Source: a virus. From it: 64,000 nucleotides of DNA. The DNA lies in the IMG/VR virus record IMGVR_UViG_3300045988_160394, positions 192,001 to 256,000 of that record; one strand, given 5' to 3'. The translations under genes were made by a program, and so were the position numbers. Shown one piece after another: positions 3,901 through 30,546 of this stretch. Under the pieces are notes generated by a model. That model had not been told where the DNA came from. It saw nothing but the letters and a program-made list of their open reading frames with translations, and made no database searches. Position 1 is the first letter of the stretch, and the number at the start of each line of letters is the position of its first letter.

Positions 3901-6900
3901 AAATCTTTAAACCATGTTACAGCTGATTGTGCAGCATCTATAGATACAGCTTCTATTTCACCAAAACCACTTAAAGGATTTGTAAGCTCATGTCCATCTC
4001 CTTGAGCAACTATTTGAGCTACTTCTGCTACTTCAACTTCAGCTACTTTTCCATTAAACACTACAGGTAATTTAGAACCGTCTCCTGAGTATCCCATTCT
4101 AACATGTATTCTTATACCTGGTTGTAACATAACTGTATCAGGTAGATTCTTTCTAGCTCTTATTCTTTTTTCTTTATCGAAATAAGCTTTAGGAGAGAAT
4201 ATAGAATCGAACACATCTCTTAATCCATATATATCAGCGTATTGTTGTGTAGTTGTTGAATCAGGTTCCATAGTATATGAATTAAATGTATTATTCATAA
4301 CTAATGTACATGTATCAGCTGCTATCTTTCTAGATTTAACAACGTTAATACTAGATATAGAGTTCATGTTATAGAAGTTGTCATGTAACTTCCAAGAACC
4401 AAATTTTCTACCTTCATCTACAAATACAACATAATAAGTAGGGAATGCTCTTGCCAATCTACCTCTTTTATCATTAACAAGCATATCATAGAATGAATGT
4501 AATATATATGCTCTAGGATCTTCAGCTGATTCTATGAATACATCTTTCATTAATGAGTTCATAACCTTCTGACTAGTAGATGTATAAGCTATAGTCTTTC
4601 CATCATTACTTAATGTCATATTTATTCCACCCATAGCAGATAGGAATTTTACAGCTGATATTTTTGAATCAGATAATCCTTCTCCAGATTCAATATAACC
4701 TGTTAAATTATTTAATGATTCATAATCTCTATATTTAAATAATGTATATAAGTCATTTGCATTTCTAGTTGTAGCTGCTATAAAAGGATATATTAATCTA
4801 GCACAAAAAGCTTGCTGAGATGCTCTGTGTACAGAATTCATTAATTCCTTCATTTCTTTTTGGTCAAAACCTAAAGCTTTTAATCCTCCTGTTACAGTCT
4901 TTACATCACTAAGATTAGGTTTTTTATCAGCATCTTTTCCTTTAAGTTCAGCATTTGAAAAAATCAATAAAGGATTACCCATATATAAAGGGTTTAACAT
5001 TCTACCTAATAAACCACCATCTTCTGGCATATCTGAGAATCCAAAACTTTCATAATAGATATCATTCCAGTCATTTGCTATTATATCTATTTCAGATATT
5101 AAAAGCCCATCTACTATCATCTTTCTTAAATGAAGTAATACATTTCTTAAGAAAGCTTCTGCATTATTTTCTATGCTTGTTAAAATAGCTGTTTTATATT
5201 TCTTTATTTCATCACTATTAGAATCTAACTTATTATAATATGGGTCTAAAAATCCTGCCTGTATCTTTTCATAAGGAGAATCTTTTTCTGATACATATGT
5301 TATATTTGATTCTTTCTGCATCATGTCAGAAATCAATTTAGGATCAGAATATTGTACTATTCTTCACGCTCCAAAAACTGTTCCTGTATCGATTCCTTCT
5401 TTTATACTTAAAGCATAACTAGATTTACCTTCTATTTTATCTGTAATACAATAAGGTAAAAATGATCCTTTATATTCCGAATCTGTTTGATCTTTATTAG
5501 GATATTCAGCTAATGTCATATAATGATTTGGATACCAATCTTCTTCTTCTTTTATTCCACTAGCATATTCTCTATTTCCTGATAAAGCACATCCTGAGGC
5601 AAATAAGAATCCTATCATATATTGAATTGGATTTGCTAACTCAAAAGAACTTTTACCGAAAGAATCAGTTATTGGATGCATTTTAATTGATGTAGCTGTT
5701 GGACATAGTATTTCAATTAATTCTTTACCTTCTCCTTTTGTAAATAAATTGTTTACTGCGTCGCTACAAACTTTTTTATAGTTATTTTTTCTAGTTAAGT
5801 CTTTACTGTTCTTTTCATAATCTATAGGCTTAGATAATATTTTATCTATTAAGTTTATACATTTAGTTCTTCTAGCTTTTATTTCTTCTGCGAAAGCATC
5901 TTTGTTGTCTTCTTTTATTTTTCTAATAGCTTCATCAACACATTTATCAGCTAAAGGAGCTTTCCATCCAGGTATGATTTCTCATCCATCAGTTACGTCA
6001 GTCATAACTAATTTTTTAATAGCCATAGAAAGTCCTAATCTTTCTTCTATTGTTTCTTTCTTATCCTTAGATAAGTTTTTCATGTTTTTCAGTTTAGAAG
6101 AAATTTCTCCTTCGATGTTTTTAATTACATCATAGTAAGAGCTACCTTTTGCATTATCTGCACTTTCTAAAGTTATTCCTGTATAAGCTTCTATTTTTCC
6201 TGTTAGTTCAGCTCCATATACGTCTTTAAATTTAAACATATGAGATGGATCATCTTCTGTTTTGAATAAGTTTTTAGCTAAACCTTCTTTAACCATTTTC
6301 TTTATTACTAAAGATGTATATGGATAAGCATAAACAATATAGAAATCTGGATCTGGATAACTTCTATTTTGACCAGCGTATTTAACATATCTAAATCCTA
6401 ATTTACCTAACTCTTCTAATGAAGGTAAATCTAAATCTGGATATAGTTCTACTTTTGATAAAGCATAATTTAAGTTAAAGTAATTTTTAATAGATAAGCT
6501 AGAACTTCCATTAAAGTCAACTCTTCCACCTTCTGCTTTTACATCCAATCTTCTTAAAGCTTCTCTTTGTCTTTGAGTTCTATCTACAGAAGTTAATCTC
6601 ATAAATATAGAATATACTCCAGGGAAACCTTCCATAGTATCTACTTCTATCATATCTATTAATACTTCAGATACTCCTAACATTGTAGTTAAATCAGATT
6701 TGATTTTAATAGGCCATGCAGGTAAAACTTTTCTATATGTTTTTGCAGTAGCAGATGCTAGATTAGGAAGAGAGTTTAATGCTGAAACTATAGTTATATC
6801 GTCAGTAACTAATTGAAATTCTAATTGTATATCTTGTCCACCTATATATTGAGGACCTTTACCTTCTATAGCTTTTAATGAAACTTCTGTAAAACTGTTA

Positions 6901-9893
6901 GCCATATTAGCCATAACATTAGTACATAGAATATTTGTTACATAAGGTACAAAAGGCATATTAGCTGGATTTTTGTAATCCTTAATATAGAAGTCTATTT
7001 CTTTATTGTATTTGTTTAATGGATCATCATCAGGTAAATCTTGAGGATTATCTTCTTGATTTATTCCATTAATTAAATTCTTTAATGCTGTAACGTCATT
7101 ACTTTTTCTTAATATAAAAGTATTTTTATAATGATCAGATTTTTCATCATCTGAAATATTTAATGTAGCTAATTTAAATATACTATCTTTATTAAATGTC
7201 ATTTCAAATGACACTCTCATACAATCATCTATAAATATTTCATTAGGTTTTAAAGGATTGTTTTTATCGTTCTTACCTAATACTTCTTTTATGTTAGACC
7301 AGTCTTCATTATTTATAGATTCTAAATTTAACTTTAAGCTAAATTCCCATATAAGATGATATATATCATTAGCATCTTTAGTTATTATTTCATTCATTGT
7401 TAAGTCTTTTAAATACTTAGGATTATTAAAGTCCCCTAATAAAGCATTTTGTAAAGGTAATATATAGTTCTTAGTTACACTTGATAAAGCTTTGTCGTTT
7501 GTATCATAAATAAATATTCTAGACTTATCTGTATTACAAATATTCTCTTCTCTTGATCCATCTCCTACAAATAGAGGAGGATTCATCTTTATAAAATGCT
7601 TCTTCTTAACAGCATTACCTATTAAGTTTTCTATTGCTATATTAAACTTTTCATTCTTATAGTTCTCAACTGAATCTAAAGCTAATGCTAATTCACTTAA
7701 TGATTTAACGAATGTTTTAGCATCATCACTTAAATCTATTGAAGAAGTTGGTGTTAATAAGTTTTCATCTCTATCTTTTTTTATTTGAAGAGCATTCGCT
7801 AACCAGTTTTCATCTGGTATATAAAAACTTATTTCTCCTTTATTTACTTTAGGACCGCACTCATACCACCATGGACCAACAGTATTTTTATGAGTATAAT
7901 ATTGTAGATTATACTCATAGCTATTAAATTCCATAAGACTTAAGTTCGTTCCAGCTATTATAGATCTTTGATAGTAATATCTGAATATCTCCCAGTTAAA
8001 ACTTTTTGCGAACATAGGAGGCATTTCTGCTAGTTTTTCATTATCTTCTTTACCTGTATCTTTATCTATAGGTATATCTGGCATATAAACTTTATAGTTA
8101 AATTCTTTTAAAGTTAATATTACTTTTAATAGTCTAGGGAAACCTTCTACGTTTTGAATACTCATATTTGATAAAGCAACAGCTTCTATTCCTAATACAT
8201 CATTTATATAACCGTTCTCTATAGGCAAGAAAGGAGCTATTTTGAATTGGGCTATTAAACTTCTTAAGCCATCCATTTTATATTCAAAAGATGTTCCATT
8301 AGGACTTGTATAAACATAGTCTATTCCATTTATACCAACGTCTTCGTAAAAGTATAATGTTAGTTCTAACATTTGCTCATTATGTCCTTTATGTTTAGCT
8401 TGAGTACCTTTACTTCTCATATTAGGTATTCTTTCATAAGTACATTGAGTAATGTTTCTTATACTTTCTGGCGGTATAAGCATTAAAGTATCTCCTATGA
8501 ATAATGCACAATTTCTAACTTTAGTAAAATCTATTCCTGTTAATTCTTTATGAAGTTTTAATCTATCTTCATAAGATTTTTCTGATATCTTATTGAAACT
8601 ATCTAACCATTCTATATTATTTCTATCATATGACCATAAATTAAATGAATCAGATATTCCTGAACCAATAGCTTGTAATTCTGGAGAGCTATTAAATTTA
8701 GGATTAGCTATAGTTGATTCTGTATTACATAAAACATATTTATTTAAGTTTATCCATTTACCTTCATATTTTACATAAACAACTCCTAGAGATCTTTTAT
8801 AGTTATCCATTCCATATGGTATATAATTATAATTTGTTATAGGAAGGTCTCCATAATACATATCCCATTCTTTAATCATAAAATCGACAGTATCTTTTAA
8901 ATAATAAATGCTGTTAAAAGTTCTATCATCATTATCTGAATTAGTTTTACTTGCTTTAATTCCGTTTGCATTTAAAACTAGAACTATCTCTTCAGATTTT
9001 TCTAAAACTTTTCTAGCAGCTTCTTGAGCTTTATAAGCATCTTTAATAGTGTTAGAAGTAGATTCGTCTTTTTGCCCCATAACAATAAAGTACTTATATC
9101 CATCTTTTTTATTTATATATGGATTAGCACTCATTCTAGTTATTATTTCAGTGTATAAAGTTTTATCTCCACTTTCTCCTACTTTTCATAAAGTTACTTT
9201 GTCGTCATTTTTTCTTTCTGTAACTTTACCACTTTTTCTATCGTAATTTAAGTTTTCATAAGTTATAAGAGTTTTACCATTAATCATCTCTTTCATTTTA
9301 CCGAAGGTTGTTTCTGTTACTCTTTTATCATAGTCTTCTTCTCTGCATAGTTGTACTTCATAGTGAGGTATTTCCATAGAGTCTATACCTAATGCTCTGA
9401 CTTGTATTGATTGTCCTCCACCCATCTTTTTAAAGAAGTCTCTAAAGTTATTGTACTTTACACTTTCAGAACCATTAGTAAACATTATAGGTTGATTACC
9501 ATCATTTATATCTTCTAATCTAAAAGACCATGTATCTCCGTCAAACTTATTTAAATCTCAAGTAGACCCATTTTTATCTATATCAGCTTTATTAGCTTTT
9601 AATACGAAAGCTCCTTCTTCTGAATAATGTCCTGGATTAGTAGAGAACGGTGCTTCTACATAAAAGTATGAATCTAATATTTCTTTATCAGAATATTCAC
9701 CATCTGTATTTTTATCTACGTATTGTTGATAAATTTCTGACATTAAATCTTCTTGCATCATTTCATCCATATCAGGAGTTAAAAACTTTTTAGGATTTAC
9801 AGTATTAAAGTCGCTTCTATTATTAGCCATACTAATATATTTTTCTTTATTCTCTTTTAGTTTTTTTAGTATGTCTTTATTATCTTGACCCAT
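939..9893 (-). CDS. giant tail/baseplate-associated multidomain protein, 2984 aa, 7 in-frame TGA
   Basis: Track fragments 1128..1529, 1644..3269, 3309..5336, 5364..5681, 5982..9134, 9186..9485 and 9558..9893 share one frame. Each is separated by a single TGA. All seven linkers were hand-translated without TAA/TAG, and no internal Met has an RBS. RBS AAAGGAGA precedes ATG 9893; true stop is TAG 939-941. It contains SIQVRALGIDSMEIPHY (staphylococcal-nuclease-like, about 9361-9410) and hub-like segments such as PGIRIHVRMGYSGDGSKLPVVFNGKV. Confidence 0.8.
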
Positions 9894-9941: not shown

Positions 9942-12900
9942 TTAAAAATTCCTATTTATATAATTCTCGATATCTCTATCTGTTACTGGCTGATCTTTTT
10001 TATTTTTTATATTCATGTTTATATTAACAGCTCCACCTACTGTAGCTTCTGCTGCTTTTGCCATGATCTTCTCCATATACTTTCTACCTTTTTTAGTATC
10101 CGCCTTTATATTTATTATATAACCTTGTTGAGTATTCCCTGTCACATAACCGCTATCTTTTTCCATGAATTCAGGAATGCTCATAATTTGTTGTGATTTA
10201 TTTTCTTTGCTAACTTCACTAGCTTGTTTATCATTTAAAGGATTACCAGAAGCATAGCCTCCAATCATTAATCCAGCTGCTAAACCTAATACTGCTTTAC
10301 CCATTCCTCCTACTCTTACATTTTTAACTCCATCAGCTAAAGATTCTGTCATACTTTCAGATAAACGTTTTATTTCTGCGTCATATTGTCCAGAGTTCAT
10401 TAGTTTGTTTTTTGCAATATTACTTTCTTGTTGAGCCATGCTTCTTTGAGCTATTTCATCTAAAGCATTTTGTAAGAAAGCAGGATCTCCATATCCCATT
10501 AAAGCTTGGTGTCTAGTTGCAAAAGTACTAGCTTCTTCAGCAGCTGCTCCAATAGAACCATTATACCAAAGTTTTTCAGTTCTTGCTCCATTTCTTCCAG
10601 TAGCTTCTATAGATGCTTTATAAGATAATGCTAGTTTGTCATGAGACATTTCTTTCATTCTTCCTAAGAATTTTTGTTTCATTGCATTAGCTCCACTTAT
10701 CATAGGGTCAGCTTGTTTTTCTATATTAGCTCTTTCTTCTTTGCTTAATATAAGATGTCCCATATGTTCATATGATTTCTTAAATATATCATCACCATAA
10801 TCATCTAACCAACTGCCTAATTCATTTAATGATTCTGTAGATGCTACTGTTCCTTTATTATTAAAAATATCATTCATTGCTTTTTTGAAGTTTTTAATTC
10901 TATTATCATCATATACTCCACCAGCTAATTTTTTAGAAGAGATTACTCCTTGTTCAGCTGTATCTAAAGCATTCCAAACATAGTTATTAAAAGCTATTTC
11001 TTCAGGAGAAGTATTTCTAAATACATCAGCTAACTTAACAGCATTTAAAGCTTGGTTAACTGAACCTGTTGCAGCTAGTCCTGTTTTAGCCATCATTTCT
11101 TGTGCATACTTATCTACAGACATTCTTTTAATAGCTGTAGCTTCTAATTTACTAAACGTATCATCATCAACATTACCTTTTATAACAGTTAAAGCTTCGT
11201 CTAGTATTTTGCCAGGCTCTGATGCTTTATTTAAATCTATATCAAATTTTTCATCTTTAGTTATGTCTTTAGCCAAACTTAATAAATTAGTTGTATCTTC
11301 ACTTAGCTTATTAAACTCTTTTACAGTAGGCATATGAGCAACAGTTGTAAAAGTCTTTTTACCTAGAATAGATTCTCCGCCTGGAACTAAAACCATGTTA
11401 TCTGGATTAGATAAGTTTTGATTTTTTATAAAATCTTCTTTAATAGTTTTAGCTGCTTTATCTTGCCAATATTTATTATCTGTAACAGCAACACTATACA
11501 TAGCTCTTTCTTGTGCAGCAAAATAATCATATACTTCACCTGACATTAAATTGTTTTCTATTGCATAGTTTCTACCACCATTTTTATTAGCTAATTCATA
11601 TAAAGCTCCATCTACTACTTTCCCATCTTTATCTCTATATTCAATTCTGAATGAAGATAAAGAGTCACCGTCTTGGTCGGCATTAGCTTTTAACATTGTA
11701 GATACAGATATCTTAGTTTGATTACCTTGTAATCTTTTATCTAAGAATACTCTAGTTTGGTTTATAGAATTATTCCTTGTATTTGGATAACGGTCAGTTA
11801 TATCAAAAGTACCATATTCTAATAAGAAATCATCCATTTCACTTTCTGTTTTAAATCCAAACTTCTTTAATGTTTCTGGTTTATAATATCCCATCTTTTC
11901 CATCTGTTCTTTTGATACGTATTTATAATCAAAATAAGCTTCACCATTAGCTTCTCATTCAGCTATTGTTTTACCCATTATTTTAGATTTTTTAGTAAGA
12001 TCATCTCCAACAGTTACATCTATACCTGCCTCTTTAGCTGCCTCTACTAACTCTTTAGTCGTAGTATCAGTTATTAATCCAGATGATTTAAGTCTATAAG
12101 CAGTTGCATTTATTTCTATTTTACTAGCATTATGATGCATACCATTCTTACCAAATATAGAATCTCTTATACCTTCTATAGCTTCTGTTCTATTTCCTAA
12201 AACTCTTTGGAATAGTCTTTCATATTCATCATCTTGTTTCCCAGATAAAGATTCTAATTCTTCTATACTATGTTTAAGCTTATTTAATTTTTGATGTCCT
12301 ACATCTCTAACTTCCTCATCTGCTATTTTCATACCAGTACCAGGGACAGCTAGATATCTATTCTCCTGACCAAACTTTTCACCTAAATCTACAACTATGT
12401 TTCTTTCTACTAAATCATCAACTTTAAAGTTAACATCTTTGATATCAATAACTTCAAAGCCTTTTTGTTTCATATCTTCTAAACTTAAGTTATATCCTCT
12501 ATTAAAGCTATTAGCTTTCATAGCCATTTGTATTTTATATTCTTTTTCTGCACCTTCTACACCTAATTTAATCTTATATTTTTTAGCGTATTCATGAATG
12601 TCTTTTAAATGAGCGTATCTTTCTGTTTTAACCATATTATCTGTTAGTAGTTCATCAGTGTATGGATTAAAGAATTGATCATCTTTAAATTGGTCTAATA
12701 AACCTTTTAATGATTTCTCTCCTATAATATCTTTAGAAAAAGTAACAGTACCATCAGCATTTTCTGTTAAATGATCTTTGAAGGCATGTGAGCTTAACAA
12801 TGTTTTAGTATCTAGTTCTCCATTATTAATCATTTTTTCAATTTGTTCTGCATGAGCTTCTGTCAAGGATACCCTTTCTAATATAGATAATTCTTGGTCT

Positions 12901-15900
12901 CCAAACCTCATAGTTTTCATAGTGCCAGCTTTAGAATCTATATCTTCTAACATAGAATCTATTTTCATTATTTGTTGTTGAATAGCACTTTTCTCACTAG
13001 GGTCGGTAGACTTAATCATTTGCTTTTCTAGTCCTATTCTTTCTTTTTTTAATTCTTTTTTTGTTTTTAACATTTCAAAGTATTCTGCTGTTACACCTGT
13101 TTGTGTTTCTGCATCTCTAACATATTTTACGTTCTCTCTAGTATTAGTACCTATAGCAACTTTAGCATCTTTTATAAACTTACCATCAACAGTTATATCT
13201 TTTTGTATAGTAGCATATGAACCAATAGCTTCTTTTTTGTATTCATATTTACCATCTTTATTCATAATATAAATATCTTTAGCTACTAATCTATCATTTT
13301 CATCCATATCTTCTAATTCTTCATCTAAAGATTTTATTAATGCTGTAAACTTATCTTTATCTAATGATGTAGTTTTATTAACAGAATAAAATTTATCATC
13401 TATAAAGAATCTACCTTTCTTTTGTTTAACGCCTATAGATTCATAGCTTTTAGTGTCTTTATTTAAATCATATTGTTCTATAAATTGAAATGCTTTATTA
13501 GAATTTATTTTATCTACAATAAAATCTACAGCATCTTTCTCTGAACCATATTTCTTACCTAAGCTGTTAATAGCTTTAGATAATAATCCTTCATACATTT
13601 GTCCTATATTACCGTGCTTAGCTACGGCATCATTAGCTAATAAATGAGTTTTATTTTTTAGTATCTTATCGAATAATAATGCAGAATGCATATTTCTTTC
13701 TACAGTTATAGCTTTCTTTAAATCATCTAAAGATTCAAAACCTATTTTCTTAAGTGTACTTTCAGATAAATCTTTGTTTTTAAAGAATATAGCATCTACA
13801 GTTTCATTAGTAATTACTTTGTCTTTTACTATGTCCCAAGAATCTGTTTCTTTAAAAAATTGTTTTATCTTATTGTTGTATGATCCAGTAGAAGCATAAA
13901 CTATATCTGTCATACCTTTTTCTGCACCAGATGTCATTGTTTTAACATACCCCATAGCAGATATATCTTCTATAGCATATTGTCCAGTAATACCTTCTTT
14001 AGATAGTATCTTCTCTAACTTAGCAGCCATTTCTGCTTGAGTAAGAGGTTGATTGTTTTTATCTAAAAATTTAGATAAGTTCTTTCTTATTATTTTATTT
14101 ATATCTTCGTCTCTTAATTTAGTTCCATCACTTTCATAGAAGTTAAAATTGAAAACTCCATAATGCATTTTAGAAGCAAAGTCTACATTTCTTTCAGCAA
14201 AGCCTTTCCATTTAACAGCTGATTCACCTCTGCTTACTAATTTACCAGGAGAAGAATTGAATACTAATTCTCCATTTTTAAATTCAAAATTACCTCTATA
14301 GTTTAGTAATGCTTCTTGTTGTTTCTTTAAATCATTTCCTACTAATTCATTTAATAAAGCACTAACGTCATAATTTTTACTAAGCTTCTGAGTACTAGCT
14401 GTTCTTAATCCATAAGCAGCTTCATGCACTCTTGAATCTATAATTCTCTCTTGCTCAAAAGTAGATATTGAATTTCTTATATAGTTATAAGCTTTTTTCT
14501 CTATATCTTTTGTTTTTTCATCTACATTAGAATCTTTCATTACCTTAGCAAAGTTATTATCTATTAAAACTTGTAAAGCGTTGCTACTAACATATGTTGT
14601 ATCCATCATTACATCCGTAGTTGTTTTACCTAATCCAAAATAATTTCTCATAGTTCTTTTATCCATAATATCAGAACTTAAAGTATTACCAGCAGTAATT
14701 CCTAGTTTGGATTTCTTTATATCATCTACTCTTAATTGTAGAGCATTACCAGACTGAGTTATAGGTGGTCTTTGAGAATTATCAAAGATAGAGAATGTAG
14801 AGTTTCCTGGTCTATATCCTCTTATTCCTATAAGTGCAGATGTTTTATTTTCTTGACCAGTAAAACCTAATTCTTTAGTTAAAAAAGCAAATTCATTAGA
14901 TACGTTTTTGTCTTCTTTAATTTTATCTAATACAAAGTTAATATTCTTAATCAAATCTCTAGTCATTTCTGGATTAATATCTTCTAATGCTTTCTCTTCT
15001 TTTACATAATATTTAAGATGTTGTTTCATATTATCTAAGAATTCTTTATCAGCAAAATCTATTCCATCTACTATATGATTTAATTTTTGATTTTCTCCAA
15101 ACAAATCTACTAATACATTTTTTATATCTGATATATCTACTCCATAGTTTGAATCTATATCGTTACCTCCAAAACCATTTATGGTAGATCTACTTCTTAA
15201 TGAAGCATTATTTAAAGATACTAATCCTACTAATCTATCAAAACCTTCATCTTGGCCTTTCTTCTCTACTACTCTTTGTACGTTATTACTTATACTATAT
15301 CTATTAAGATTATCTAAAGATGAAGCAGAACCTCCTTTTACTTTTCTACCGTCAGCTTTGAAAGTTAACTTATTATTTACTTGTATTTTCATAGAACCTA
15401 ATTCTAAATACATAGTCTCAGAAGGATCATTGTATTTTATTTTAGGCATAATTAATTCCTCTGATCTACCATTTTTAAATAATAATAAAGAACCATCTTC
15501 TTGTACAGATATAGATGCTCCAAGTTTATCGGCAGTATGAACTACATCTTTTACATAAGTATTTAAATCTTTATATAAGTTGTCATACAATATCTGTTTA
15601 GTCCTATCACCTTTTTTTATTACATTTCTATTAGGTATATAATACTTTTCAACTAAACTTTTAGCATATCTTTCAGCAGATTTCTTAGTACCATCTAGAA
15701 CATTTATATTTGTTCTTTCAACTATATTATTTGCTATTTGTTGAATTATTGGTTTCATATTTTCACTATTTAAGTATCTAACAAATTCAGTATTACCTTC
15801 TAATGCTTTCATAAATGTTCTGCTACCATTTAATATTCCATTTGTAACATTAGACTCTTTAGCTTCTCTCATTCCTTCAATTATAGCTTCTGCTATTTGA

Positions 15901-18782
15901 TACGGATGATAATCTTTATCTTTAAAGCTATTTTTTGAACTAAACTTAAATTGTTTCTTTATATTTTTAAAAGCCTTTGTATCTTTTAAAACCTCATCTT
16001 CTTGTAACATAGCAAATAGTTTTTCAACTGCATCTTTTTCGTAAATTAAATTACCTTTTTTATCTTTACCATGAACAGCCTCTGTAGCTGTTTTTATTAT
16101 TGAGTAAGGGCTATTAACATCATTAAGATTAATCTTTAATATGTTTGCTGTATCTAATGATTTAGCAGTATCTATATAATTAATTCTTTTTCCTCTAATT
16201 ATCTTATCGTATTTTATTTCATATAGATTTTTAAAAGTATTAAAATCTGTTTGTAAATTAACGTCGCCTAATTTAATCATATCGGCAATATCATCATTAC
16301 CGCCTCTAAATTTGTTATTAAATATTCATTCAGCAGTCGTTCCTTTTACTTCTTTAACTGTTCTATTAAATAATTCTTGTTTAACACTTTCAGCCGTTTT
16401 AGGATCTTTAAATACTTCAGTAGCTTCTAAAGCTTCTATTATATTTTTAAACATATTACCATAGCTATTAACCATTTCTAATCCTGTAGCATTATTATCA
16501 ACAGTTGATTGTAATAATCTCATTACATCATTTTTACTATGTCCTAAAGTAGCTATAATCATTTCTTGTGATTTTATTAATTGAGCATTACTAAGTTCCA
16601 TAGCCATTTGCCCTTTAGAAACTCTTTCTGCCATGATAAGAGATATATCTCTACCTGTAATATCCATGTTCAATTCTTTAGATAAGTTTTCTTGTAGATC
16701 AAGTACATTCTTTATTTTCTTATAAGAATTATCTCTAAACATAGAGTTGTCTGCTCTAGAAATTAATTTCTTTTCATTATCAGCTAATACAACTCTATTA
16801 AATAACTCAGTATCAGAAAGACCTTCTTCATTAACTGGTTTAAAGACAACTTTATTAGTTTCTTTATTTTTGTTAATTTCTCTAATATCAAATCTGTCTT
16901 TCATTCCTTTTTTGATTTGAATTCCATTATCTGTTCTTTCTGCAACAATATCAAAGTTACCGCTTAAAAAAGCATTCATCTCTTTTTCTGATTTAAATAT
17001 TAGATTTTGTGTTAAATCTCCTAGTCTTGTTGTAGTTGCGTAATCATCATGTACTGCCATGTTTAATTGAACTTGATAAAGTTTTTTACCAGAATATTCA
17101 GGGGCTATATCTCCCATCATTGTTCTCAATTCATCTGTTAGTTCTATTTCTCTTATATTAGATATATCGTAAAAAGAACCTTTATTAATTCCGAAACCTG
17201 CACTAAAGTTTTCATGCATAGCTCCACCAGCTGCTTGTAAGGCTTCATCTCCTTTACCTAGTAAATGATTATCAGCTGTATATATAGTTCCTGTACTTTT
17301 ACTTTGTGCAAAGTTGAAATAATTTCTTCCACCATAACTAGTACTAACTCCTTTTTTAGCTTGAAGTATTTGCTTACCAGGAGTTAATACTGTATCTTCT
17401 GTTTTTATATTTTCTATTAAATTGTTTATGTGCTCTATAACAGATACATTCCCTGGAAGACTTTCTGATTTCTTTGTAAAAAACCATGATAATCCAGTAA
17501 CGTCATCTTCAGCCATATGAGGTTTTAGTCCTTCACTATTAAACAAACCTCCATAATGTTTTTGTAATAAGTATTCCTGTCCTCTTACTTTATCTATATC
17601 TCCTATTTTTGCATTTCCATATACAGAAGATAATGAATTATAATCTGTTGCTAATTTAACTCCACCTAAAACATCTAGATCTGCATAAGATGGAATATTA
17701 AAGCCAACTCTTTTACTTTCGAAATAATTATTTAATTTTCCATTATAATCGTTATTCCATTTTAATAACATATTATTTAAAATAAGTTCGTCAAACGCAT
17801 TACTGTTAAAACCAGAAATCATTGCTTTTTTATTATTAACAGCTGTTTGAGCTTTACTTATAGTTTGTGTAACTTTTAATATATCTGCTTTTATTCCATC
17901 AATTTCTCCTGTTTGATGATAAACATTATTTAAAACTTCTGCTCCTTTTTCTATAACTGAAATATCTTTATAGTTATTTCTATCTACATTAGGGAAATTA
18001 GTTGCTTTAAAATATTTTTCTCCTTTAACTTTTTCATATTTAAAATCTTTATCTGCATATTTAGCTAAACGCATAGCTGTTACTTTTAATTCTTCGTCAC
18101 TATCTATAGTTCCATTTTCTATAGCCTTTCTTATTTTATTTACAGTTTCTTCTTTTTCTTTATCTGACATTCCTATAAGTACACTTACATTATCTATTAC
18201 CTTACCTGTTTTAACGTCATATTCTTGCATAGCAAATTCTGTAATAGCATTAGGTCTTCATATATTATTTTTATCTTTTCCTCCAAGAGTTTCTAAGTCC
18301 CAAACAAAAAGACTTCCTCCATTACTTTTTAGAGAGTTAAAATATTTATAAGATTCTTTTCATGAATTGATAGATTCATTAGCAGAACCTCTTTGTTTAC
18401 TATGAACAACATTACCTAAATTCTTTATTGTTAATCCTAACATATTCTCTGATGAATTAGATTTATCACCTATTATTTCAAAGAAGTTTAATCCTTTATC
18501 TCCGATGTTGGTTAATTGTCTAAGCTTTTCTGTTATTACATCTATATCGCCAGTAGCAACTTTTTTATTTCATGTATACTTATGCTTATTAATAAACATA
18601 TGGTCAGAATCTTTTATTAAATACTTACCACTATGTAATAATTCTATTGTTCTATTTATTTCTTCTATAGCCGCATTTTCTTTATTTATATCTACTTTTT
18701 TTGAAGCTTCAATGTTACGTTGAGCTATACGGATTCTATCCATAGTAGTTCCAACTATATTAGTTGATTTATTATTAGCCAT
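9942..18782 (-). CDS. giant two-barrel RNA-polymerase-like protein with N-terminal DEDD (DnaQ-like) exonuclease motifs, 2946 aa, 5 in-frame TGA; candidate virion RNAP
   Basis: Fragments 9942..11903, 11955..16280, 16326..18230 and 18570..18782, plus the unlisted stretch 18231-18569, are in one frame. They are joined by TGAs at 11955, 16326, 18258, 18360 and 18570; linkers were hand-translated. RBS AGAGGTGG precedes ATG 18782; stop is TAA. Beta-prime-like motif: DRYPNTRNN...LKANADQDGDSLS (NADQDGD at about 11664-11684; compare universal NADFDGD). Beta-like motif: NDAVAKHGNIGQ (about 13600-13640; compare GDKxAGRHGNKG). Exonuclease motifs: Exo I LFVWDLETLGG (about 18282-18310), Exo II GFNSNAFDELILNN (about 17781-17820), Exo III HMAEDDVTGL (about 17491-17526). 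Confidence 0.8.
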
Positions 18783-18873: not shown

Positions 18874-19188
18874 TTATAATACAATACCTAGTTTAATCAG
18901 GATACTGTTCATTCTATTAACTTCTTTTCTAAGTTCAGAATTTTCTTTTGTCAAAGTTTCTATCTTTTCTTCTAGAATCTTTGTTTGTTTAGCATATTCT
19001 TCTTTAACTTTTGAGTTTTCTATTGAAAGCTTTTCTATCATCAACATAAGTTGTTCGTTAGCTGTTAAAATAAGATCTTGCTTTTTATTATTTTTGTTAA
19101 TTCATAAACCATACATAGTTCCGATTAAAGTTATTAATGCAACAATAATAGTAGCATCAATTGAATTTAAACTAGTTAGAATATCCAT
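18874..19188 (-). CDS. small membrane-anchored coiled-coil protein, 104 aa, 1 in-frame TGA (19102)
   Basis: RBS AAGGGGTG precedes ATG 19186-19188. Hydrophobic N-terminal segment IIVALITLIGTMYGL-W, then a heptad-like K/E-rich region. TAA at 18874-18876. Absent from the track because the TGA splits it. Confidence 0.6.
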
Positions 19189-19209: not shown

Positions 19210-22200
19210 TTAAAATAACATTGAAACCAATCCTTGAATACCTGATTGGACACCGTATTCGCCTATTTTTTTAACATCACTAGCAGTTTGACTTATGTCT
19301 CCAACTATTCATAGTCCTGGTGCACTAGTAGGACTCATAGATATATTTTGTAAAGAAACTCCTAATCCAGACATTGCTGTTACCATATTAGAAGCATATT
19401 TGATACCACCTGTACCTTTATCAAATTTATGAATGTCTGGTGCATCTTGATATTGAGCTTTTCCTTTCTCTGATTCGTAATATCCGAAATCAGATAATAA
19501 CATACCTTCGTTCTGAATAGTTTTCATTTTAACATGTTTCAAATTAACGTTAGGTTTCCAACCTCTTCAGTTCATACCAGGTAGTTTATGCTTTTTGAAA
19601 AACTTCCTGTTACTATCTACTTTTTTTACTTTCTCTCTTCAAGCTATTTGTAGAGGTTTCCTTAAATATTCTGGTAAAGATTTAAGGATTTTTTTTCTTT
19701 CGTTCTTATCAGTTTCATTCATAAAGTTTATAAAATAATCTTTATATTGATCTGGTATTGACGCTAAGATTTCATCTTGTGTAGCTCCTTCTGATAATCC
19801 ATAAATAGTAGATTCCATTGCTTTCTTGTAAGCAACTGCTGCCTTAGTATACTTACCACCTTTAAGCATGGTTTGTTGTGATTGTAAAGCCTGTATCTTA
19901 TTGTTAATCTTCATCATTTGTTGATCATATTCATATCCACCAGCTGTATATTTATTACTCAACTTTTCGGCCTTTTTAATCAATTTAGCAACTTTTTCTT
20001 TATTTTTATCTATTTTTCTAAAAGCTTTCTTTATATTTACGCTTCCTTCGAAAACAAAAGCTCTTAAAGCAGCTTGATTATATAAGCCTTTATATTTCAC
20101 ATATTCTAATCTATCAAAATATTCATCTAGTTCAAATTTCTTTTCAACTTTCTTAGGTATTCATTTTCTTCTAAACATGTCTTTATCAAAATCAGGATTC
20201 TTAATAGCTGATACACCTAATCCAACTAAAGCACCTATAGCTGCACCTTTACCATGTCCTAATTCATCTAATTTTAAATATCTAGATAATGTTTCTCCAG
20301 CAAAAGCAAATGATGCTGTTGCTTTCAATGGATTTTCAGCATTATTTCATCCTCATGCTAAAGACCCTAAAACTGCTCCAACTTCTGCTCCTACTTCTAT
20401 ATTAGTTTTCTTTCTTATATTAGTAGTTCTAACTCCTAAGTTCCATAAAGCAGCAGTACCCATTCCAAGTAAAGCTGTAGGGTTAGTTGCAGCCATTAAT
20501 GCTCCTGCTCCATATTTTAAATAAGATTCACTAGTTAGTTTCCCTATATTCATAAATAAAGCAGCGGAAGCTACTGCACCTGCATGTTGTAACATAGACT
20601 GTCCTGATATTCTATTAAACGCAGGTTTTACGAATCCTTCAATAGGATGATCCCAAGTAGTTAATGAGTTACCATAAATTTGTTCATTCATGAAAGATTC
20701 TCTAGCTGTTTCTATTTTTAAATACTTATTATGAAGGAATGGAATATTAGCATGACCAATAACTTCTTGAATAGCTCCTAATGTTTCTTGCATAGCTGAA
20801 ACATTTGCTAAATAACCTATGGCACTTGTATCTTCTTTATCTTTAGTTGCCATTCCTCTTTCTATTAATGTCTTGTTAATATTAGTTCCTAATCCATCTG
20901 TATCATATATAACAGCATTAGTAATTAATCCATCTTCTAATCTTTTTATAGCATTAGCTGATGTTCTATAGTTAATATGTTGACCTACATCTAATACATC
21001 ATGGACATCAGCATCTTTATCTAAAACAATACCTCCAAGATTAAGTTTTTCTCCTGAAGCTAATTCTACAATAGAACCATTGATGCTTTTAACTACACCT
21101 TTTTTCATTTTTACATTATTACGTATATATCTGTAATTAAAGAATTCATGGTTCCCTGACATTTTATTAGCCCTTTGTTGAATCTCTTTCATCTCTTCTA
21201 TTAACTCAGGGTCTTTTACAGTATTTCTAGCAATGTTTCTCCATATCTTATATTCTTGTGATGATGGTGCTATGTCTGCTAATATTTTAAATCTATCAAA
21301 TGCACCATATTCACCAAACTCATCTGAATGAAGTTTATTAAGAGTTTCGTATCCTTTACCAGGTAATCTCATTTCTCCTTTAGGTAATGAAGTAAATGGG
21401 TCCCCTGTTAAGAATCTTTCAGGTAATCATTCAGGCATATTATTTCTTAATGGATTATATCTAATAATAGACTTATCTTCTGATGGAAAGAAACGTCTAG
21501 CTATCTCCATTAATTCTCCACCAAAACCACCTATTTGAGAATCTCAGAATCCTCTAGAGAAACTTGTCATTGCTCCTGCATCAGCATATCTCATTTTATA
21601 GCTATCTTCTCCAAAAGCAAAGTCTCCTAAGAATCCATATATACCAGATAGCTGTTTAGCAGAATATATTCCATCTTGCATAAAATTAGTTACAAGACTT
21701 TTATTAACCAAACCAGGGTCATATATATCACTATAATATTCTGAATTTCTAACATTCATTTGATTAACAAGATTAGTGTATACATAAGTACCTTTAGTCT
21801 TATCAGGTAATACACCTTTATTGTATGCTGGGTTAGATTCATAACCAGTTAAATAATTCGCTGCTTTTTTAATATACTTATTTAATCCAGAAACTATTTG
21901 TCTAGCTATTACTCCTGTTTCTTGAGATTGGCTAGATATTGTTTGTACAATAGGGCTATTAGGATCTATTGCTTGTGTTTTATCGAATGCTGGATTAACA
22001 TCTCCATTAGGAACATTTAAATGATTAAAAGATTCAACATCATTTTCTACAAAACCTACTCCAGGAGAAGAAACTTCTCCATGAGAAATGTTTATATTCA
22101 TATGGCCGTCTCCTGGATTACCATATGGAACATACTTAGCATTTCTTACATCAGTACCTTCAAAAATTAAAACATCATCATTTTTATTTCCTCTAGCTTT

Positions 22201-25200
22201 AATTTTTTCGTTAATGTGTTTTAGTACCGTTCTTATATCTCTTCCATCACTACCTAATCTTTTCTTTACTTCAGGAAGCATTCTTACTGGTTTTATCATT
22301 TCTCCTAAAGTTGGATTAAGTATAGCTCCTCAAGGAGTACCTTCAGTAAATAGTTTTCCTGTTAAAGGATAAGGTCTATCATCCATATGTTTTTTCTCTA
22401 ACCAATATGGATCTAAGAATGCTCTTATAGGACTTAGAGGATGTCTAATTGTTGGTATTCAACTATGTTTCCATTTTTCATTTTCTGAACCATATATACT
22501 AACGTCTTTATAATTACTATGAGCTCTTCTTAAATAGTTAGGTTGATAGTATTGAACTGATCCTCCTCTAAATTCATTAGCTGAACCAAAGCCCCAGAAA
22601 CGTCCTCTTCTAACAACTGATACTCCATTTTCATATCATTCTTTTCTTTCATCAGCATCTTGAAATTCATTTGTTCCTGTCCAATACTCTCCTATTATAG
22701 ATGATTCTTTAGCTCAGTTAATAGCTTGACCTATACCAGTAGCATAAGCTAATTTTCTTGCTGCTATATCTACATTGGAAACTGCATTAGCTGCTGCTCC
22801 AGTAATAGAAACTCCAGTAAAGTTTTCTGATTCAAAATTAAGATAATCATATAGCTTATAAGCAGCCATTACTGGCAATACTCTTTTAAGACCTATATTT
22901 TTAATTAATTCTAAAGTAGAACCTGTATTTTCTGATGATAGATTTAATCCTACTCCTTCTAATCCTCACATTAATCTTGCAACCATAAATTGAGGTATTT
23001 GAGTAAGGGATGTGTAGTTGCTTAAATCACCATTTCTACTAGCTAGTATTTCCTTACCTGCTTGGCCTGCTAATTTAATAGCATCGTTTATTGATTTGAT
23101 TTGTCCTAATCTTGATAAAGCAGATTCTCTATTAAAAGTATAGTTGTCATACTCATTTATATAAGTTTCATTTAAACTACCAAAAGTCTTATCATAAATA
23201 TTAGTTCTAGATCCTAAATCGTCTATCATATTTATGTATTCTTGTTTAAACGTAGGACTAGTAGTTAATAAGTCATCTAGTTTTTTTAATGGAGAACCTT
23301 CTCCTATTAATTGATTAAGATGCAAATCCTGGTCAAAGTCATTATAGATTTCTAAGTTCTTTTGCATAATAGACCAGTTAGCAAGATATCTTAAATTCTT
23401 TTGTTGTTCTAAAGTTAAGTTAGAGTTTTGTAGAACCTTTTCTAAATTAACTATTCCAGATTTAACTCCACCATTAGATTCTCTTAACATAACTTCTTTA
23501 AGAGCTTCTCTTCTAATAACGTTTTCTGCATCTAATACATTAGTAGACGAAACAGAATATCCAAATATACTTTTACTATCTACTTGAGATATGTTTTGCA
23601 TATTCATTAAATGGTCTATATTAGATAAACCTTTATTAAATATATTGTTTAAATCCTGATTAAAGAAATTACTTTCTCCTGAATTATTTATTAAATGTAA
23701 TAATTCTTCAGCATTTTCATACTCTTTATTATTTAAAATATTAAGTATTCTTAACGATTCTTTATCTGTTATTGCTCCAGAATGTATCAATGAAGATATA
23801 GAAGAATCAGTCACTTGTTGAGAAGCAGTTATATCATTTAATATAGATGATAATTTTTTATTATCTTCTAATACCATATTTGCTATATTTGCAGAAGCTT
23901 CTAATAAACTTTCTTCTGAAAAATCCATTCCTTTTGCTTCAGCATAAACGTAAGATAGTTGATCTATTTTTTCTTCTGTACTTAAATCACTACCTATAAA
24001 TCTTTTTACTCTTAATAGCTTGTCTTTAACTCTATCTTGGTCTTTCTTACTATTGCCAGTAAAAATGTCTTTTATTTTATTAAACATAGTATAGGAACCA
24101 GTTTGATCAATGTCTAATTTTTTAGCAAGCTCATTATCACTTGCTGTTAATATGTCTTTATTAGTACCTAAGAACTCTTTTGTTAATCTAGCCCCTTTAC
24201 CATGCATATTATTATTTATAATACCATCTGCTATCTTATCTGAAAGAACTAAATTGCCTTGTTCATCTAAAACAGTTTCAAACAACTTTGCTTTTTTAGT
24301 ACTAGCGTTACCTATAGCTATTTTAGAAGTGAAAGCAGTTGTACTAGTATTTCCTTCTTCATAAGCTCCTAATAATGAAGTATTTAAAGCTTTAAAGTTA
24401 ACGAATATAGGATTACTCTTTTTTAATTTTATAGCATCTGTTAATCCAAATATTCTACCTAGAGTACTTACTGAAAAGTCATCTATAGCTTTATTAGCCA
24501 TATCTCTTACTTCGGCCGTACTATATATTTCACCATTTCTATTTATTCTAATAGCTTTATCAAAGATAGTATTGTCATCTAATTCAGGCATTTTATCAAT
24601 AAAGTCTTTTAAATTCTTTTTGACTAATCTACCATTTTCATCTTTAGTTACATAATCAAACATTCTAGGATTATAGTCTTTAGACTCAGTAAACTTTTTA
24701 AAGTCTCCAAGAGTCATTGCTTTATCTCCAGAAAATAATAGTTCACTATCTATTTCTAAACCTAAAACATTCTTTGCGAATTTATCTACTTTACCAAAGA
24801 TAGTATCACTTGTTTTCTTATTATCTAATAAGCTATTTCTTAATTCTTTATCTACTTGTTCTCTTATCTTTCTAGTCTTAGAAAAGTTATTTCTTACTTT
24901 TTCAGATATATCTTTTTTAGAATTATATATATATTCTAAGAATTCTTGTTTCTCTTCATTAGAGAAATTCATCTTATTGAAATGCTTATCTAAGAAATTA
25001 GAAAAAGCTATCTTATTATCTTTAGATACTACTGCATTTTCATTTATTTTTTCATAAGCCTCTAAAGCAGTATTTTTAATCGTAACTGGATTTCTTTCGA
25101 TGTTTTCTTTTTTTGTATATTTAGCAATAAGCTTAAATACTTCTTGTTTCTTTAATTCAGTTTCATAGTTAGCTTTAATACCTCTAATAGCATCTGAAGC

Positions 25201-25575
25201 TCTTACTTGATCTATGTTTTTTATTTGACCAAATAAATTATTTTTTCTAGTACTGTTAAATTTAAAAGAATCTTTTCTAAGTTTTCTTTCTTCTTCAAAA
25301 GTCTTTTTGCCTAATCGGAAAGCATCTCTTAAATCTTCACCAATAGTTCTTTTATCTAATCCTGTTCTAGTTGCTTTTAAATCTCTAAGCTCTTTATTAG
25401 CTTTTTTAATAGCCGTTTTAGCAGAAGGAATAAATTCACTTGATAAAGTTCTTTTTAAAGATGTATTATTAAAAACAGCTGCACCGCCTCCTATGGCTAA
25501 TGCAGCTGCTCCAACTTTGGCGACTTTACTAACTGTAGAAGAATCTCTTTCTTTATCTCTTCTTTTTTTAGCCAA
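19210..25575 (-). CDS. tape-measure-like giant tail protein, 2121 aa, 13 in-frame TGA, TTG start
   Basis: Fragments 19309..19542, 19639..20100, 20353..21372, 21544..22299 and 22966..25575 are co-framed. I scanned every linker triplet by triplet and found only TGA, never TAA/TAG. RBS AGAGGTGA precedes TTG 25575; stop is TAA 19210-19212. Supporting features: long helical repeats, Gly-zipper hydrophobic segments (GHGKGAAIGALVGLGVSAI), and a position directly after two chaperone-like genes and downstream of sheath and tube. Confidence 0.75.
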
Positions 25576-25597: not shown

Positions 25598-26392
25598 TTA
25601 TCTCAAAGCCACTGGTACTGTACTAGCAGATTGACTTTCATATCCAGTAAACATAGCATCGGCATCCCAATCTATATCTGGATACATTTTTCTAAAATCT
25701 AAGTATTGTTTATACTCACTTTCAGTCATTTCTCTTGATCCAACTTTTATTTTAGCAGAGCCATCTGAATAATGTTGAGATGCTTTTTGTTCTACATGCT
25801 CTTCATCATTTTCATCATGGTCTTCATAATATTCTTCTTCATCATCTGTTTCTATATTAGCTCTTAAGAAATCTGCTAAATCATTTTGTAATTCAAGATT
25901 TCTAAATGTAGTTAAGTTATATTCTGCTTTTACAAACATCTTGCAGAATTTAATCATATCTCATTCTTCTATTTCTTCTATTCTATAATTAGGGAAAGCT
26001 TCTGCTATTATACAAGTCATTTGTGAATCCATCTCTTGTAATTCTTCCCTAAAAGAATTTAATAACTGTAGTATCTGATCTGCTCTTAAAAATGAGTTAT
26101 CTAATATTTGTTCGTAAAGTAAGCTAGGAATGCCTGCTTCTATTTCATCCAAATCAATTTCAGTAGGATATAAAAGGGTAGCTTCAATTATTTCATCTTC
26201 TTTCTCTATTTGTTCAAGCTGATTATTTAATATAATGCTTTTATATTCTTTTCTATTAAGAGGTCTATATATGAAGTTATATCCTCCTATATCAGCAAAA
26301 AAAATAACTTCATGTTTAGACATTAAATCTTTAACTACTGCATCGAAATCAGCTTCTTGTTGTCTATTTTTAGAAGCGTTTGATATTTTCAT
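25598..26392 (-). CDS. tail assembly chaperone-like protein, 264 aa, 1 in-frame TGA (25961)
   Basis: ORFs 25961..26392 and 25598..25957 are in frame across one TGA (EEIEE-W-DMIKF). The N-terminal part is paralogous to the upstream gene (FIYRPLNRKEYKSII vs IIWKRLKRSEYKEIL). Acidic C-terminus. Lies immediately upstream of the tape measure. Confidence 0.65.
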
Positions 26393-26395
26393 ATT

Positions 26396-26797: not shown

Positions 26798-26840
26798 TCT
26801 TAAATCCTCCATTTTTATTTATTTTCTAATAATTAGTATA

Positions 26841-30460: not shown

Positions 30461-30507
30461 TATATATCCTCCTTTTTTATTTTAGATATAGCTTTAATAT
30501 ATGTTTA

Positions 30508-30540: not shown

Positions 30541-30546
30541 AAAAAA

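Follow-up and report, generated by a model that had tools for sequence, protein, structure and literature searches.

Two-barrel RNA polymerases that are injected into the host have so far been described from crAss-like podoviruses, from one group of Thermus siphoviruses and from jumbo phages of the phiKZ/AR9 type. Phages of the last type encode a host-independent RNA polymerase that is delivered with the virion, and its beta and beta-prime parts are divided among 4-5 polypeptides, whose genes lie apart from those of the tail (PMC7824862). In the Thermus phage P23-45, the virion RNA polymerase gp96 is a single-chain two-barrel enzyme fused to the tape measure, for which passage through the tail and pre-early transcription have been proposed; it is accompanied by a second, early-encoded polymerase (PMC10770324). 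In phi14:2, a crAss-like phage, the products of the gp65-gp66-gp67 block are virion proteins, and gp66 was first recognised solely by its DxDxD motif. Here we report on a gene from the IMG/VR virus record IMGVR_UViG_3300045988_160394, located in a stretch of 64,000 nucleotides (positions 192,001 to 256,000 of that record) that was analysed as a whole and is called the window below. The gene occupies positions 9942-18782 of the window on the minus strand and, from the reading of its ORF (open reading frame) and of its homologs, comprises 2,946 sense codons followed by TAA, with five in-frame TGA codons read as Trp. Its product is a late protein of 335 kDa from an uncultured, TGA-recoded jumbo myophage (~255-266 kb), and combines a DnaQ-like exonuclease domain with a segment related to the catalytic barrel of RNA polymerases. 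All positions are those of the window, and all features of this gene are on its minus strand.

Predicted catalytic domains of the giant protein

Eight residues are common to all two-barrel RNA polymerases, namely R446, P448 and three Asp residues (D481/483/485) of Rpb1, and D837, K979 and K987 of Rpb2 (Ruprich-Robert and Thuriaux, PMC2919709); in addition, the Lys of switch 2 (Rpb1 K332) is said to be common to DNA-dependent RNA polymerases (PMC2919709). The five beta-prime residues of this set (R, P, D, D, D) are 100% invariant in the family of the giant protein, where R2331, P2333, D2369, D2371 and D2373 were found in 91/91 sequences. They are located in a beta-prime-type double-psi barrel with its catalytic loop (residues 2326-2383, 11634-11807; R2331-x-P2333 ... 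D2369-Q-D2371-G-D2373), inside a beta-prime-like module of residues ~2200-2625 (10908-12185) outlined by profile comparisons. The spacing from the Arg to the first Asp is 38 residues in the giant as in P23-45 gp64 and gp96, 39 in gp66 and 35 in RpoC, and when the window is translated with code 4 in its six frames, the pattern R.P.{30,42}D.D[GI]D turns up just once, at this barrel.

A first-pass annotation of the window, made from the DNA letters and their ORFs, had quoted six motifs in this protein, and each of them was found: VWDLETLGG at residue 160, GFNSNAFDELIL at 324, HMAEDDVTGL at 422, NDAVAKHGNIGQ at 1717, DRYPNTRNN at 2330 and NADQDGD at 2367. The distance of ~650 residues given there between the two presumed barrel motifs is correct as well. 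Its identification of NADQDGD as a near-copy of the universal NADFDGD loop was borne out by a search (hmmsearch) of a 46-sequence profile of residues 2198-2392 against 177,635 distinct PDB sequences, in which eight of the nine matches were largest-subunit RNA polymerase homologs, all aligned over R-x-P...D-x-D-G-D. The matches included the non-virion RNA polymerase (nvRNAP) subunit gp55 of phiKZ (E = 3.4e-5, 27 bits), the nvRNAP beta-prime of AR9 (E = 1.5e-3), ASFV RPB1 (E = 0.046) and Pol I A190 (E = 0.54). Shallower profiles were not informative in PDB: a 12-sequence full-length profile gave no matches, and an 11-sequence barrel profile scored phiKZ gp55 (E = 0.54) no better than it scored an EF-hand protein (E = 0.69). 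Evidence from motifs alone was for that reason set aside until significance was reached with the 46-sequence profile.

Profile-profile comparison agreed with these matches. Segments of the giant were compared by hhalign with two reference profiles covering Proteobacteria and related phyla, one made from 67 beta and the other from 75 beta-prime sequences. The barrel segment aligned to RpoC 420-475 (P = 0.00099), and its score of 29.1 was reached in none of 40 column shuffles, the maximum being 19.0. Upstream of it, a switch-2-like motif, FGKNGMHHNASKIEINATAYRLK (12087-12155; K2212, K2232), aligned to RpoC 323-356 (P = 0.023), with a score of 18.5 against a maximum of 15.9 and again 0/40 shuffles reaching it. 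In this motif, FGK(2212)NG...YR(2230)LK, K2212 is conserved at 92%, and in the PDB hmmsearch it showed a weak colinear alignment to switch 2 of phiKZ and AR9. Neither hhalign against the single sequences of RpoB, RpoC, YonO, gp64, gp96N and gp66, none of which was significant, nor a decoy ranking of 353 ORFs with short motif hidden Markov models, which was uninformative, added to this. We consider the homology of the beta-prime-like R-x-P...D-x-D-G-D element to RNA polymerase catalytic barrels to be established at the level of sequence, because of the significant PDB matches, the profile-profile P-value of 0.00099 and the five invariant universal residues. Judged by the same matches, its nearest known relatives are the jumbo-phage enzymes of the multisubunit RNA polymerase (msRNAP) type, phiKZ gp55 and AR9.

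Further downstream, MMAKTGLAATGSVNQALNAVKLA (11028-11096; G2573, 99% conserved) is bridge-helix-like by eye, and TAEQGVISSKK (10929-10961; K2617, 100% conserved) is a possible trigger-loop equivalent; AKTGLAATGSVN and AEQGVISSKK resemble, also by eye, the printed alignments of gp66 and beta-prime (PMC10770324, Suppl. Fig. 9). Because profile support is missing, both assignments were lowered to unconfirmed.

The protein's N-terminal part contains a predicted DEDDh (DnaQ-like) 3'-5' exonuclease domain (residues ~150-440, 17463-18335), recognised by an AlphaFold2 model, Foldseek and profiles. The ordered Exo I/II/III set reported in the first-pass annotation is present, and its motifs align to the exonuclease families DnaQ, Orn and RNase T. 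Exo I (VWDLETLGG, 18279-18305; D162, E164) was aligned by hhalign to Exo I of DnaQ with P = 0.019; Exo II (GFNSNAFDELIL, 17778-17813; N326, D331) aligned to Exo II of PDB 9mrc_A; and Exo III (HMAEDDVTGL, 17490-17519; H422-x4-D427) aligned to Exo III of Orn and RNase T with P = 0.045. D162, E164, D331, H422 and D427 are invariant in 91/91 sequences in this order, and the H422-x4-D427 arrangement assigns the domain to the DEDDh subgroup. The AlphaFold2 model of residues 126-505 of a 72%-identical homolog (P0001) had a pLDDT (predicted local distance difference test) of 86.6 and a pTM (predicted template modelling score) of 0.84. When it was searched with Foldseek against PDB, nearly all the best matches were DEDDh enzymes (oligoribonuclease, REXO2, CRN-4, ExoI, ERI-1/3, 3'hExo), with probability 0.8-0.98, E 0.03-0.1 and TM-scores of 0.24-0.54, the modest TM-scores being due to large insertions in the domain. 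Against the BFVD viral models the matches were significant, and among them were proteins annotated as 'DEDDh', 'Exonuclease', 'Exoribonuclease 3' and 'DNA polymerase III epsilon', with probability ~1.0. The closest BFVD model (A0A7R7G2L5_1; E = 3.6e-7, probability 1.0) is the first piece, of 1,257 residues, of a large viral protein, and may represent a family member in a deposited virus, though tblastn against GenBank phages gave no match. Finally, the best PDB match of a 34-sequence profile of the full-length protein was a TREX-like DEDDh exonuclease (E = 0.025). The fold and an intact active site of a DnaQ-like exonuclease can be regarded, with high confidence, as established, and exonuclease activity is predicted.

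The assignment of a beta-like half is a different matter. A candidate beta-like module (residues ~1318-1905, 13068-14831) is marked by weak colinear hhalign matches and is not statistically demonstrated. Three of its segments have their best matches in RpoB in colinear order, at 666-688 (DDANRALMGANMQR), 1093-1127 and 1224-1241, with P-values of 0.2-0.6. FDNSQRPPITQSGNAL (14739-14786; R1338, 98% conserved) resembles beta 'DDANRALMGANMQR', its best match being RpoB 661-688, which is not significant. The 'beta signature' of the first-pass annotation, NDAVAKHGNIGQ, which lies at NDAVAKHGNIGQMYEGLL (13581-13634; H1723, 96% conserved), did not hold up as a barrel signature: its best alignment, a weak one, is with RpoB 1093-1127 (the beta 'PSRMNIGQILE' segment, containing 'PSRMNIGQILETHL'), and in its shuffle control 5 of 40 shuffles equalled the real score. 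With GDKxxxRHGNKG (GDKMAGRHGNKG) it did not align, and its equation with that motif was rejected; it probably corresponds to another beta motif than the one claimed. For the universal Lys pair, YVKTMTSGAEKGM (13911-13949) is the better candidate: its K1614-x7-K1622-G has a spacing identical to that of E. coli RpoB K1065-x7-K1073-G, and its K, E and K are invariant in 80/80 anchored sequences. As acidic-residue candidates for Rpb2 D837, FEQERIIDSR (E1443, 93%) and IED at residues 1603-1605, found in about half of the sequences, were considered. IED as Rpb2 E836/D837 was rejected: no more than about half of the family conserves it, and it stands 9 residues before the first Lys.

A full-length deep profile gave no RNA polymerase matches in PDB for the beta-like part, and no recognisable beta core with its SBHM (sandwich-barrel hybrid motif)/flap insert was found in PDB profile searches, the weak colinear hhalign matches being all that was obtained. 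Of the two-barrel fold anticipated in the first-pass annotation, the beta-prime barrel is confirmed by profiles, while no beta-type barrel was detected and the core model was poor; the beta-like barrel is not demonstrated. Many two-barrel families have no significant similarity beyond the DxDxD region (Chaban et al., PMC10770324). Since such families are often alike only at DxDxD, failure to detect the beta side is what would be expected of a divergent family, although it is not favourable evidence. All considered, the protein is likely to be a complete two-barrel nucleotide polymerase.

HMMER was run exhaustively over 1.84 billion representative proteins with a profile built on residues 2277-2700. 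By this search the family comprises, at 50% identity, no fewer than 119 clusters with E <= 1e-3, of which 94 have E <= 1e-10. Members are mostly 2,400-3,400 residues long, and the matches fall at the same relative position within them. GenBank phages yielded no match, whether searched by DNA or by tblastn with the core or with the N-terminal region. Across 91 aligned full-length members, residues with >=96% conservation form four groups: D162, E164, N326, D331, D370, H422 and D427 in the exonuclease; R1338, K1614, K1622, G1633, E1695 and H1723 in the beta-like region; G2324, R2331, P2333, D2369, D2371, G2372, D2373, G2573 and K2617 in the beta-prime-like region; and G2887, Y2888 and N2891 in a strongly conserved C-terminal domain (9945-10145). 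These residues stay invariant in subsets with only 13-25% identity. Every full-length member thus has the two putative active sites. The fusion is ancient and obligate. The C-terminal domain is preceded by a conserved Gly-rich hydrophobic segment, VRVGGMGKAVLGLAAGLMIGGYASGNPLN (residues 2822-2850, 10233-10319), the most hydrophobic stretch of the protein.

Reading frame, recoding and genomic neighbourhood

The ORF contains no in-frame TAA or TAG, and exactly five in-frame TGAs, at residues 71 (18570-18572), 141 (18360-18362), 175 (18258-18260), 819 (16326-16328) and 2276 (11955-11957, between the beta-like and the beta-prime-like parts). In the alignment of homologs, four of the five fall on conserved Trp columns, residue 141 among them. 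A relative with 86% identity on a 264-kb contig (L006) has TGG at residues 71, 819 and 2276 and, conversely, TGA at residues 342 and 1525, where the window has TGG. A distant, non-recoded relative (L007, 25% identity) has TGG at residue 175, and its gene is an uninterrupted standard-code ORF of 3,397 codons with no TGA; protein P0013 reads through at residue 2276. In protein searches, full-length relatives were 2,907-3,397 residues long, eight of them with 44-72% identity over 100% of the query. The single recoded ORF with five TGAs of the first-pass annotation is accordingly upheld by the codon reading, the Trp columns, the TGA/TGG swaps and the TGA-free relative, and the gene is best read as encoding a single polypeptide with TGA decoded as Trp.

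If the TGAs were true stops, the region would encode separate exonuclease, beta-like and beta-prime-like subunits. A standard-code reading indeed yields ORFs of matching sizes (634, 1,441 and 653 residues) with ATG starts, and databases keep such pieces as separate proteins (e.g. P0014). However, TGA and TGG are exchanged at the same Trp positions in close relatives, four of the five TGAs stand on conserved Trp columns, the distant relative has one ORF of 3,397 codons without TGA, and the division would sever Exo I from Exo II and Exo III. The subunit arrangement is thus hardly credible; the TGAs were rejected as subunit boundaries because of the swaps and of the TGA-free 3,397-codon gene, and for the same reasons the separate 634-, 1,441- and 653-residue proteins are gene-calling artefacts.

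Recoding is not uniform along the window, whose G+C content is about 28%. The minus-strand block (1-53.4 kb) is rich in in-frame TGAs, with 1-13 per large gene, whereas the plus-strand genes from 54499 onward have none, so that the placement of the gene on a recoded late strand was correct. GC and AT skew reverse at about 54 kb along with gene orientation (1-53400 minus, 53681-64000 plus). No tRNA genes, suppressor tRNA included, were found within the window.

The gene lies in a tail module. Upstream, on the same strand, are the genes for a large terminase (46400-49420), a portal protein (42895-45030), an HK97-type major capsid protein (38555-39781; Pfam Phage_capsid_4, E = 3e-18) and a tail sheath (31286-34216; phrog_16991, E = 3e-59). 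The terminase carries in its P-loop an intein of 416 residues (47966-49213, minus strand), inserted in the Walker A loop (…GRRIGK|CIPGH … FITHN|TETM…), with LAGLIDADG-like blocks and several TGA codons inside. After the sheath gene, three paralogs of 354, 851 and 221 residues (26841-31212, minus strand) occupy the tube position and have a common N-terminal domain of ~170 residues. This domain matches phrog_9206, labelled 'major head protein'; the label may be wrong, as by position the paralogs resemble tube or tube-related proteins. They are followed by two small acidic proteins (25598-26812, minus strand).

Three giant genes come next, all on the minus strand. The first (19210-25575; 2,121 residues, 13 TGAs) is at the tape-measure position; its product has a hydrophobic segment at the N-terminus and several Gly/Ala-rich hydrophobic segments near the C-terminus. 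A gene for a small membrane and coiled-coil protein of 104 residues (18874-19188, minus strand) separates it from the gene under study, which in turn is followed by a gene for 2,984 residues with seven TGAs (939-9893; phrog_20474, E = 4.8e-168). The label of phrog_20474, a profile of 1,954 positions, is 'endolysin'. In the 25%-identical relative the gene order is kept, with proteins of 2,180 and 117 residues, the homolog of the giant and a protein of 2,999 residues, and in the 86%-identical relative a weak sheath-initiator (baseplate) match was found further downstream of the homolog. By these comparisons, the gene belongs to a conserved block of three giant genes, between genes at the sheath/tube position and genes at the baseplate position. 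That it is embedded in the tail module, as first proposed, is therefore confirmed by the sheath match and by a block order kept in relatives with only 25% identity. The proposed placement between tape measure and baseplate is reasonable by position, although both identities are positional and the 2,121-residue giant had no family match, PHROG included; similarly, of the proposed sheath and tube genes, the sheath is identified by its PHROG whereas the tube is a matter of position, its candidates matching a head-labelled PHROG. A blastp comparison of the neighbouring giants with phi14:2 gp65 and gp67 and with P23-45 gp96 gave chance-level matches only.

The relatives lie on contigs of 255-266 kb, and the lineage is therefore one of jumbo phages. 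Two relatives of the giant are found in NCBI records assigned to Firmicutes, one on a 117-kb contig of 'Paraclostridium dentum' (L001, GCA_051651445.1) and one on a 79-kb contig of a Bacilli bacterium metagenome-assembled genome (P0017). The former is split into abutting ORFs of 1,890 residues and, from the very next base, 442 residues, which suggests that an in-frame stop is read as sense there and that the contig could be a recoded phage rather than host chromosome. As a clue to the host, these records are a weak hint.

The TGA-free early block opens with a gene for a protein of 778 residues (54499-56835, plus strand), in which the motif 'KYPTPGTEEIELVVF' is followed after ~70 residues by 'KHKLAGFDTDYDGFAVVF'. 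Its family counts at least 91 proteins of ~745 residues, on the same 255-266 kb jumbo contigs, with K627-x-P629-x-P-G-x-E-E-I and K-H-K-L-A-G-x-D696-T-D698-x-D700-G as invariants. No matches were obtained in Pfam, PHROG or NCBIfam, nor with a profile against PDB; hhalign placed it, weakly, on the P23-45 gp64 catalytic barrel (P = 0.065) and on the barrel of the giant itself (P = 0.037). We regard this protein as a candidate for a two-barrel RNA polymerase of the non-virion kind; were it indeed a polymerase, the phage would possess a pair of virion and non-virion enzymes, as P23-45 and phiKZ do.

Proposed function and alternatives

We favour, with moderate confidence, the view that the giant is a single-chain RNA polymerase of the beta-beta-prime type, equipped with an exonuclease and injected with the phage DNA. 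A very divergent beta-like barrel upstream of the beta-prime part would supply K1614 and K1622, completing a DNA-dependent enzyme in one chain. The protein would be built into or beside the tail, possibly anchored by the Gly-rich hydrophobic segment and the conserved C-terminal domain, and would be ejected together with the DNA. Once in the cell, it would transcribe the TGA-free early genes of the plus strand, on the model of the phiKZ/AR9 virion RNA polymerase, P23-45 gp96 and crAss gp66. The exonuclease may act on 3' ends, trimming or proofreading backtracked RNA, clearing short abortive RNAs or attacking host nucleic acid. As the gene is on the recoded late strand, its translation is expected only once TGA means Trp. 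Carriage in the tail and ejection would fit the three-giant block, the hydrophobic segment at residues 2822-2850 and the conserved C-terminal domain, and the support for the putative packaging in virions is the conserved synteny of the tail module.

Several results weigh against this proposal. In the catalytic loop, members of the family have Q, N, H or S where D-F/Y-D-G-D has its aromatic residue. Pfam, PHROGs and NCBIfam recognised no polymerase part, as no RNA polymerase family was returned for fragments of the window or for two sets of 11 and 17 family members. A 38-sequence profile of residues 1588-1745 matched no RNA polymerase in PDB, hhalign and HMMER failed to align the loop of YVKTMTSGAEKGM to beta, hhalign missed the FEQER segments too, and no invariant Asp of the 91-member alignment could be assigned as the equivalent of Rpb2 D837. 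For the region of the bridge-helix and trigger-loop candidates, a profile searched against PDB returned no RNA polymerase, and hhalign gave no support either. An AlphaFold model of residues 1-1200 of the homolog P0013 (corresponding to residues 1539-2738 of the giant), based on 18 sequences, reached a pLDDT of 64.6 and a pTM of 0.42; this core model was below 50 at all motif regions, and its Foldseek search, which returned no RNA polymerase, was uninformative.

The protein might be a true two-barrel RNA polymerase that acts late and outside the virion, in late transcription or primer synthesis, its location among tail genes being incidental. Such a role would suit translation under late, recoded conditions, as would any late function, and the support for packaging is entirely synteny. 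On the other hand, the position between two giants in the tail block is kept down to 25% identity, a Gly-rich hydrophobic segment with a conserved C-terminal domain is typical of tail-lumen or ejection proteins, the known giant single-chain phage RNA polymerases encoded in structural modules are virion proteins, and a separate candidate for an early polymerase is available at 54499-56835. A late non-virion enzyme therefore seems unlikely. Somewhat harder still to accept is that the giant is ejected as a 'polyvalent' or structural protein in which the exonuclease does the enzymatic work, while the barrel is a relic, or has another metal-dependent role, with no polymerase partner barrel. Statistical support does exist for one barrel only, and multidomain injected polyvalent proteins are a known theme (PMC7824862). 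For a relic, however, the invariance of R, P, the three Asp, the switch-2 Lys and K-x7-K-G across ~90 sequences of 17-25% identity would be unexpected. Nor is a beta-prime barrel known to occur in isolation that keeps the D-x-D-G-D loop intact while serving another function.

A polymerase joined to a DEDD exonuclease is also the classic layout of a proofreading DNA polymerase, and PolD has the same two-barrel core (PMC10770324), so that the giant could be a two-barrel DNA polymerase or primase-like enzyme, analogous to PolD, with a DnaQ-type proofreading exonuclease. Every significant match, however, was to an RNA polymerase, with PolD absent among them; the switch-2-like motif has the Lys of DNA-dependent RNA polymerases (PMC2919709); and a replicative role is hard to square with the tail module. 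We consider this possibility very improbable, and the injected RNA polymerase with an exonuclease is retained as the preferred interpretation.

In its strongest form, that interpretation would make the family the first in which a DEDDh 3'-5' exonuclease is covalently joined to an RNA polymerase and works on what this enzyme makes or copies. Such a single chain of the beta-beta-prime type would proofread or trim transcripts and would reach the host by way of a contractile tail, and with the 778-residue protein as a second, early two-barrel polymerase the phages would have a fully host-independent transcription cascade. In so complete a form the proposal is speculative, and we would give it rather low odds. 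If the core of the proposal is true, injected two-barrel RNA polymerases would extend to a new group of phages, the TGA-recoded jumbo myophages. It would also suggest how infection could start in recoded phages, with standard-code early genes expressed ahead of TGA reassignment. The question whether a transcription enzyme uses a dedicated proofreading or trimming nuclease becomes testable, and ~140 database proteins, many of them mis-split at TGA, gain a testable annotation.

Comparison with known systems

Neither a DnaQ-type exonuclease fused to a two-barrel polymerase nor the giant family itself was found in full-text literature searches or in a survey of jumbo phages (PMC7824862). The novelty claimed in the first-pass annotation stands within that literature, and a beta-beta-prime-type polymerase and a DnaQ-type exonuclease in one chain would be an architecture for which we found no earlier description. 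Fusions with accessory hydrolases do occur, since an HD phosphohydrolase is fused to a beta fragment in Bacillus jumbo phages (PMC7824862). The exonuclease domain shares its fold and the D-E-D-D-H catalytic set with DnaQ epsilon, oligoribonuclease/REXO2, RNase T, TREX1/2 and ERI-1, but, unlike them, spans ~290 residues, has large insertions between Exo I and Exo II and is fused to a polymerase-like giant.

The parallel drawn in the first-pass annotation with the N4 virion RNA polymerase and crAss-like gp66 does not extend to kinship, the closest relatives being jumbo-phage RNA polymerases of the multisubunit type. The N4 virion RNA polymerase is a giant of ~3,500 residues that is injected and transcribes early genes, and its T7-like palm-domain core is unrelated to double-psi barrels. 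The T7/N4-type palm-domain family of Pfam (RNA_pol) gave no match to the giant at E <= 10 in 11 members, nor at E <= 0.1 in 17. Stop-codon recoding is known from some crAss-like phages too. Gp66 of phi14:2 (PDB 6VR4), a single chain of 2,180 residues found in virions and encoded in a run of three giants in the structural module, resembles the present protein in layout; yet no sequence or profile similarity was detected by hhalign and sequence comparison, and no alignment at homologous sites. Unlike the giant, gp66 comes from a podovirus, has a DFDID motif and no exonuclease, and is QDE-1-like rather than msRNAP-like (PMC10770324).

YonO-type enzymes, from Firmicutes prophages and from the jumbo phages 0305phi8-36 and c-st (PMC2919709, PMC7824862), are also single chains with both barrels, and their D-N-D-G-D loop is likewise without the aromatic residue. 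They differ in being ~840 residues long, outside the tail module and without an exonuclease, and the sole hhalign match between the giant and YonO was of 9 residues at the loop (P = 0.14). More features are shared with P23-45 gp96, another giant tail-module protein, which has the same 38-residue spacing from R-x-P to D-x-D and in which the top hhalign match, a weak one, lies at the catalytic barrel (P = 0.014). The polymerase of gp96 forms the N-terminal end of a siphovirus tape measure and is placed in the phage/plasmid/QDE-1 clade (PMC10770324). In the giant, by contrast, the polymerase part covers residues ~1300-2650 of 2,946, the tape-measure position belongs to a separate gene for 2,121 residues, the phage has a contractile tail, the polymerase is akin to the msRNAP type and the chain includes an exonuclease.

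Sequence matches reached significance solely with phiKZ nvRNAP gp55 and the AR9 beta-prime N-terminal subunit, which were also the best. They lie at the barrel, the switch 2 of both proteins is colinear with the motif found here, and phiKZ and AR9 are, like the present phage, jumbo myophages. The differences are in the organization: the giant is one chain of 2,946 residues with a DEDDh exonuclease, a hydrophobic C-terminal segment and a location in the tail module, and its beta-like half is unrecognisable by profiles. On these comparisons the giant is placed outside the gp66, P23-45, YonO and N4 families, and, with the beta-prime-side residues of the two-barrel superfamily in place, it leans, by its switch 2 and its best matches, towards the msRNAP-type clade.

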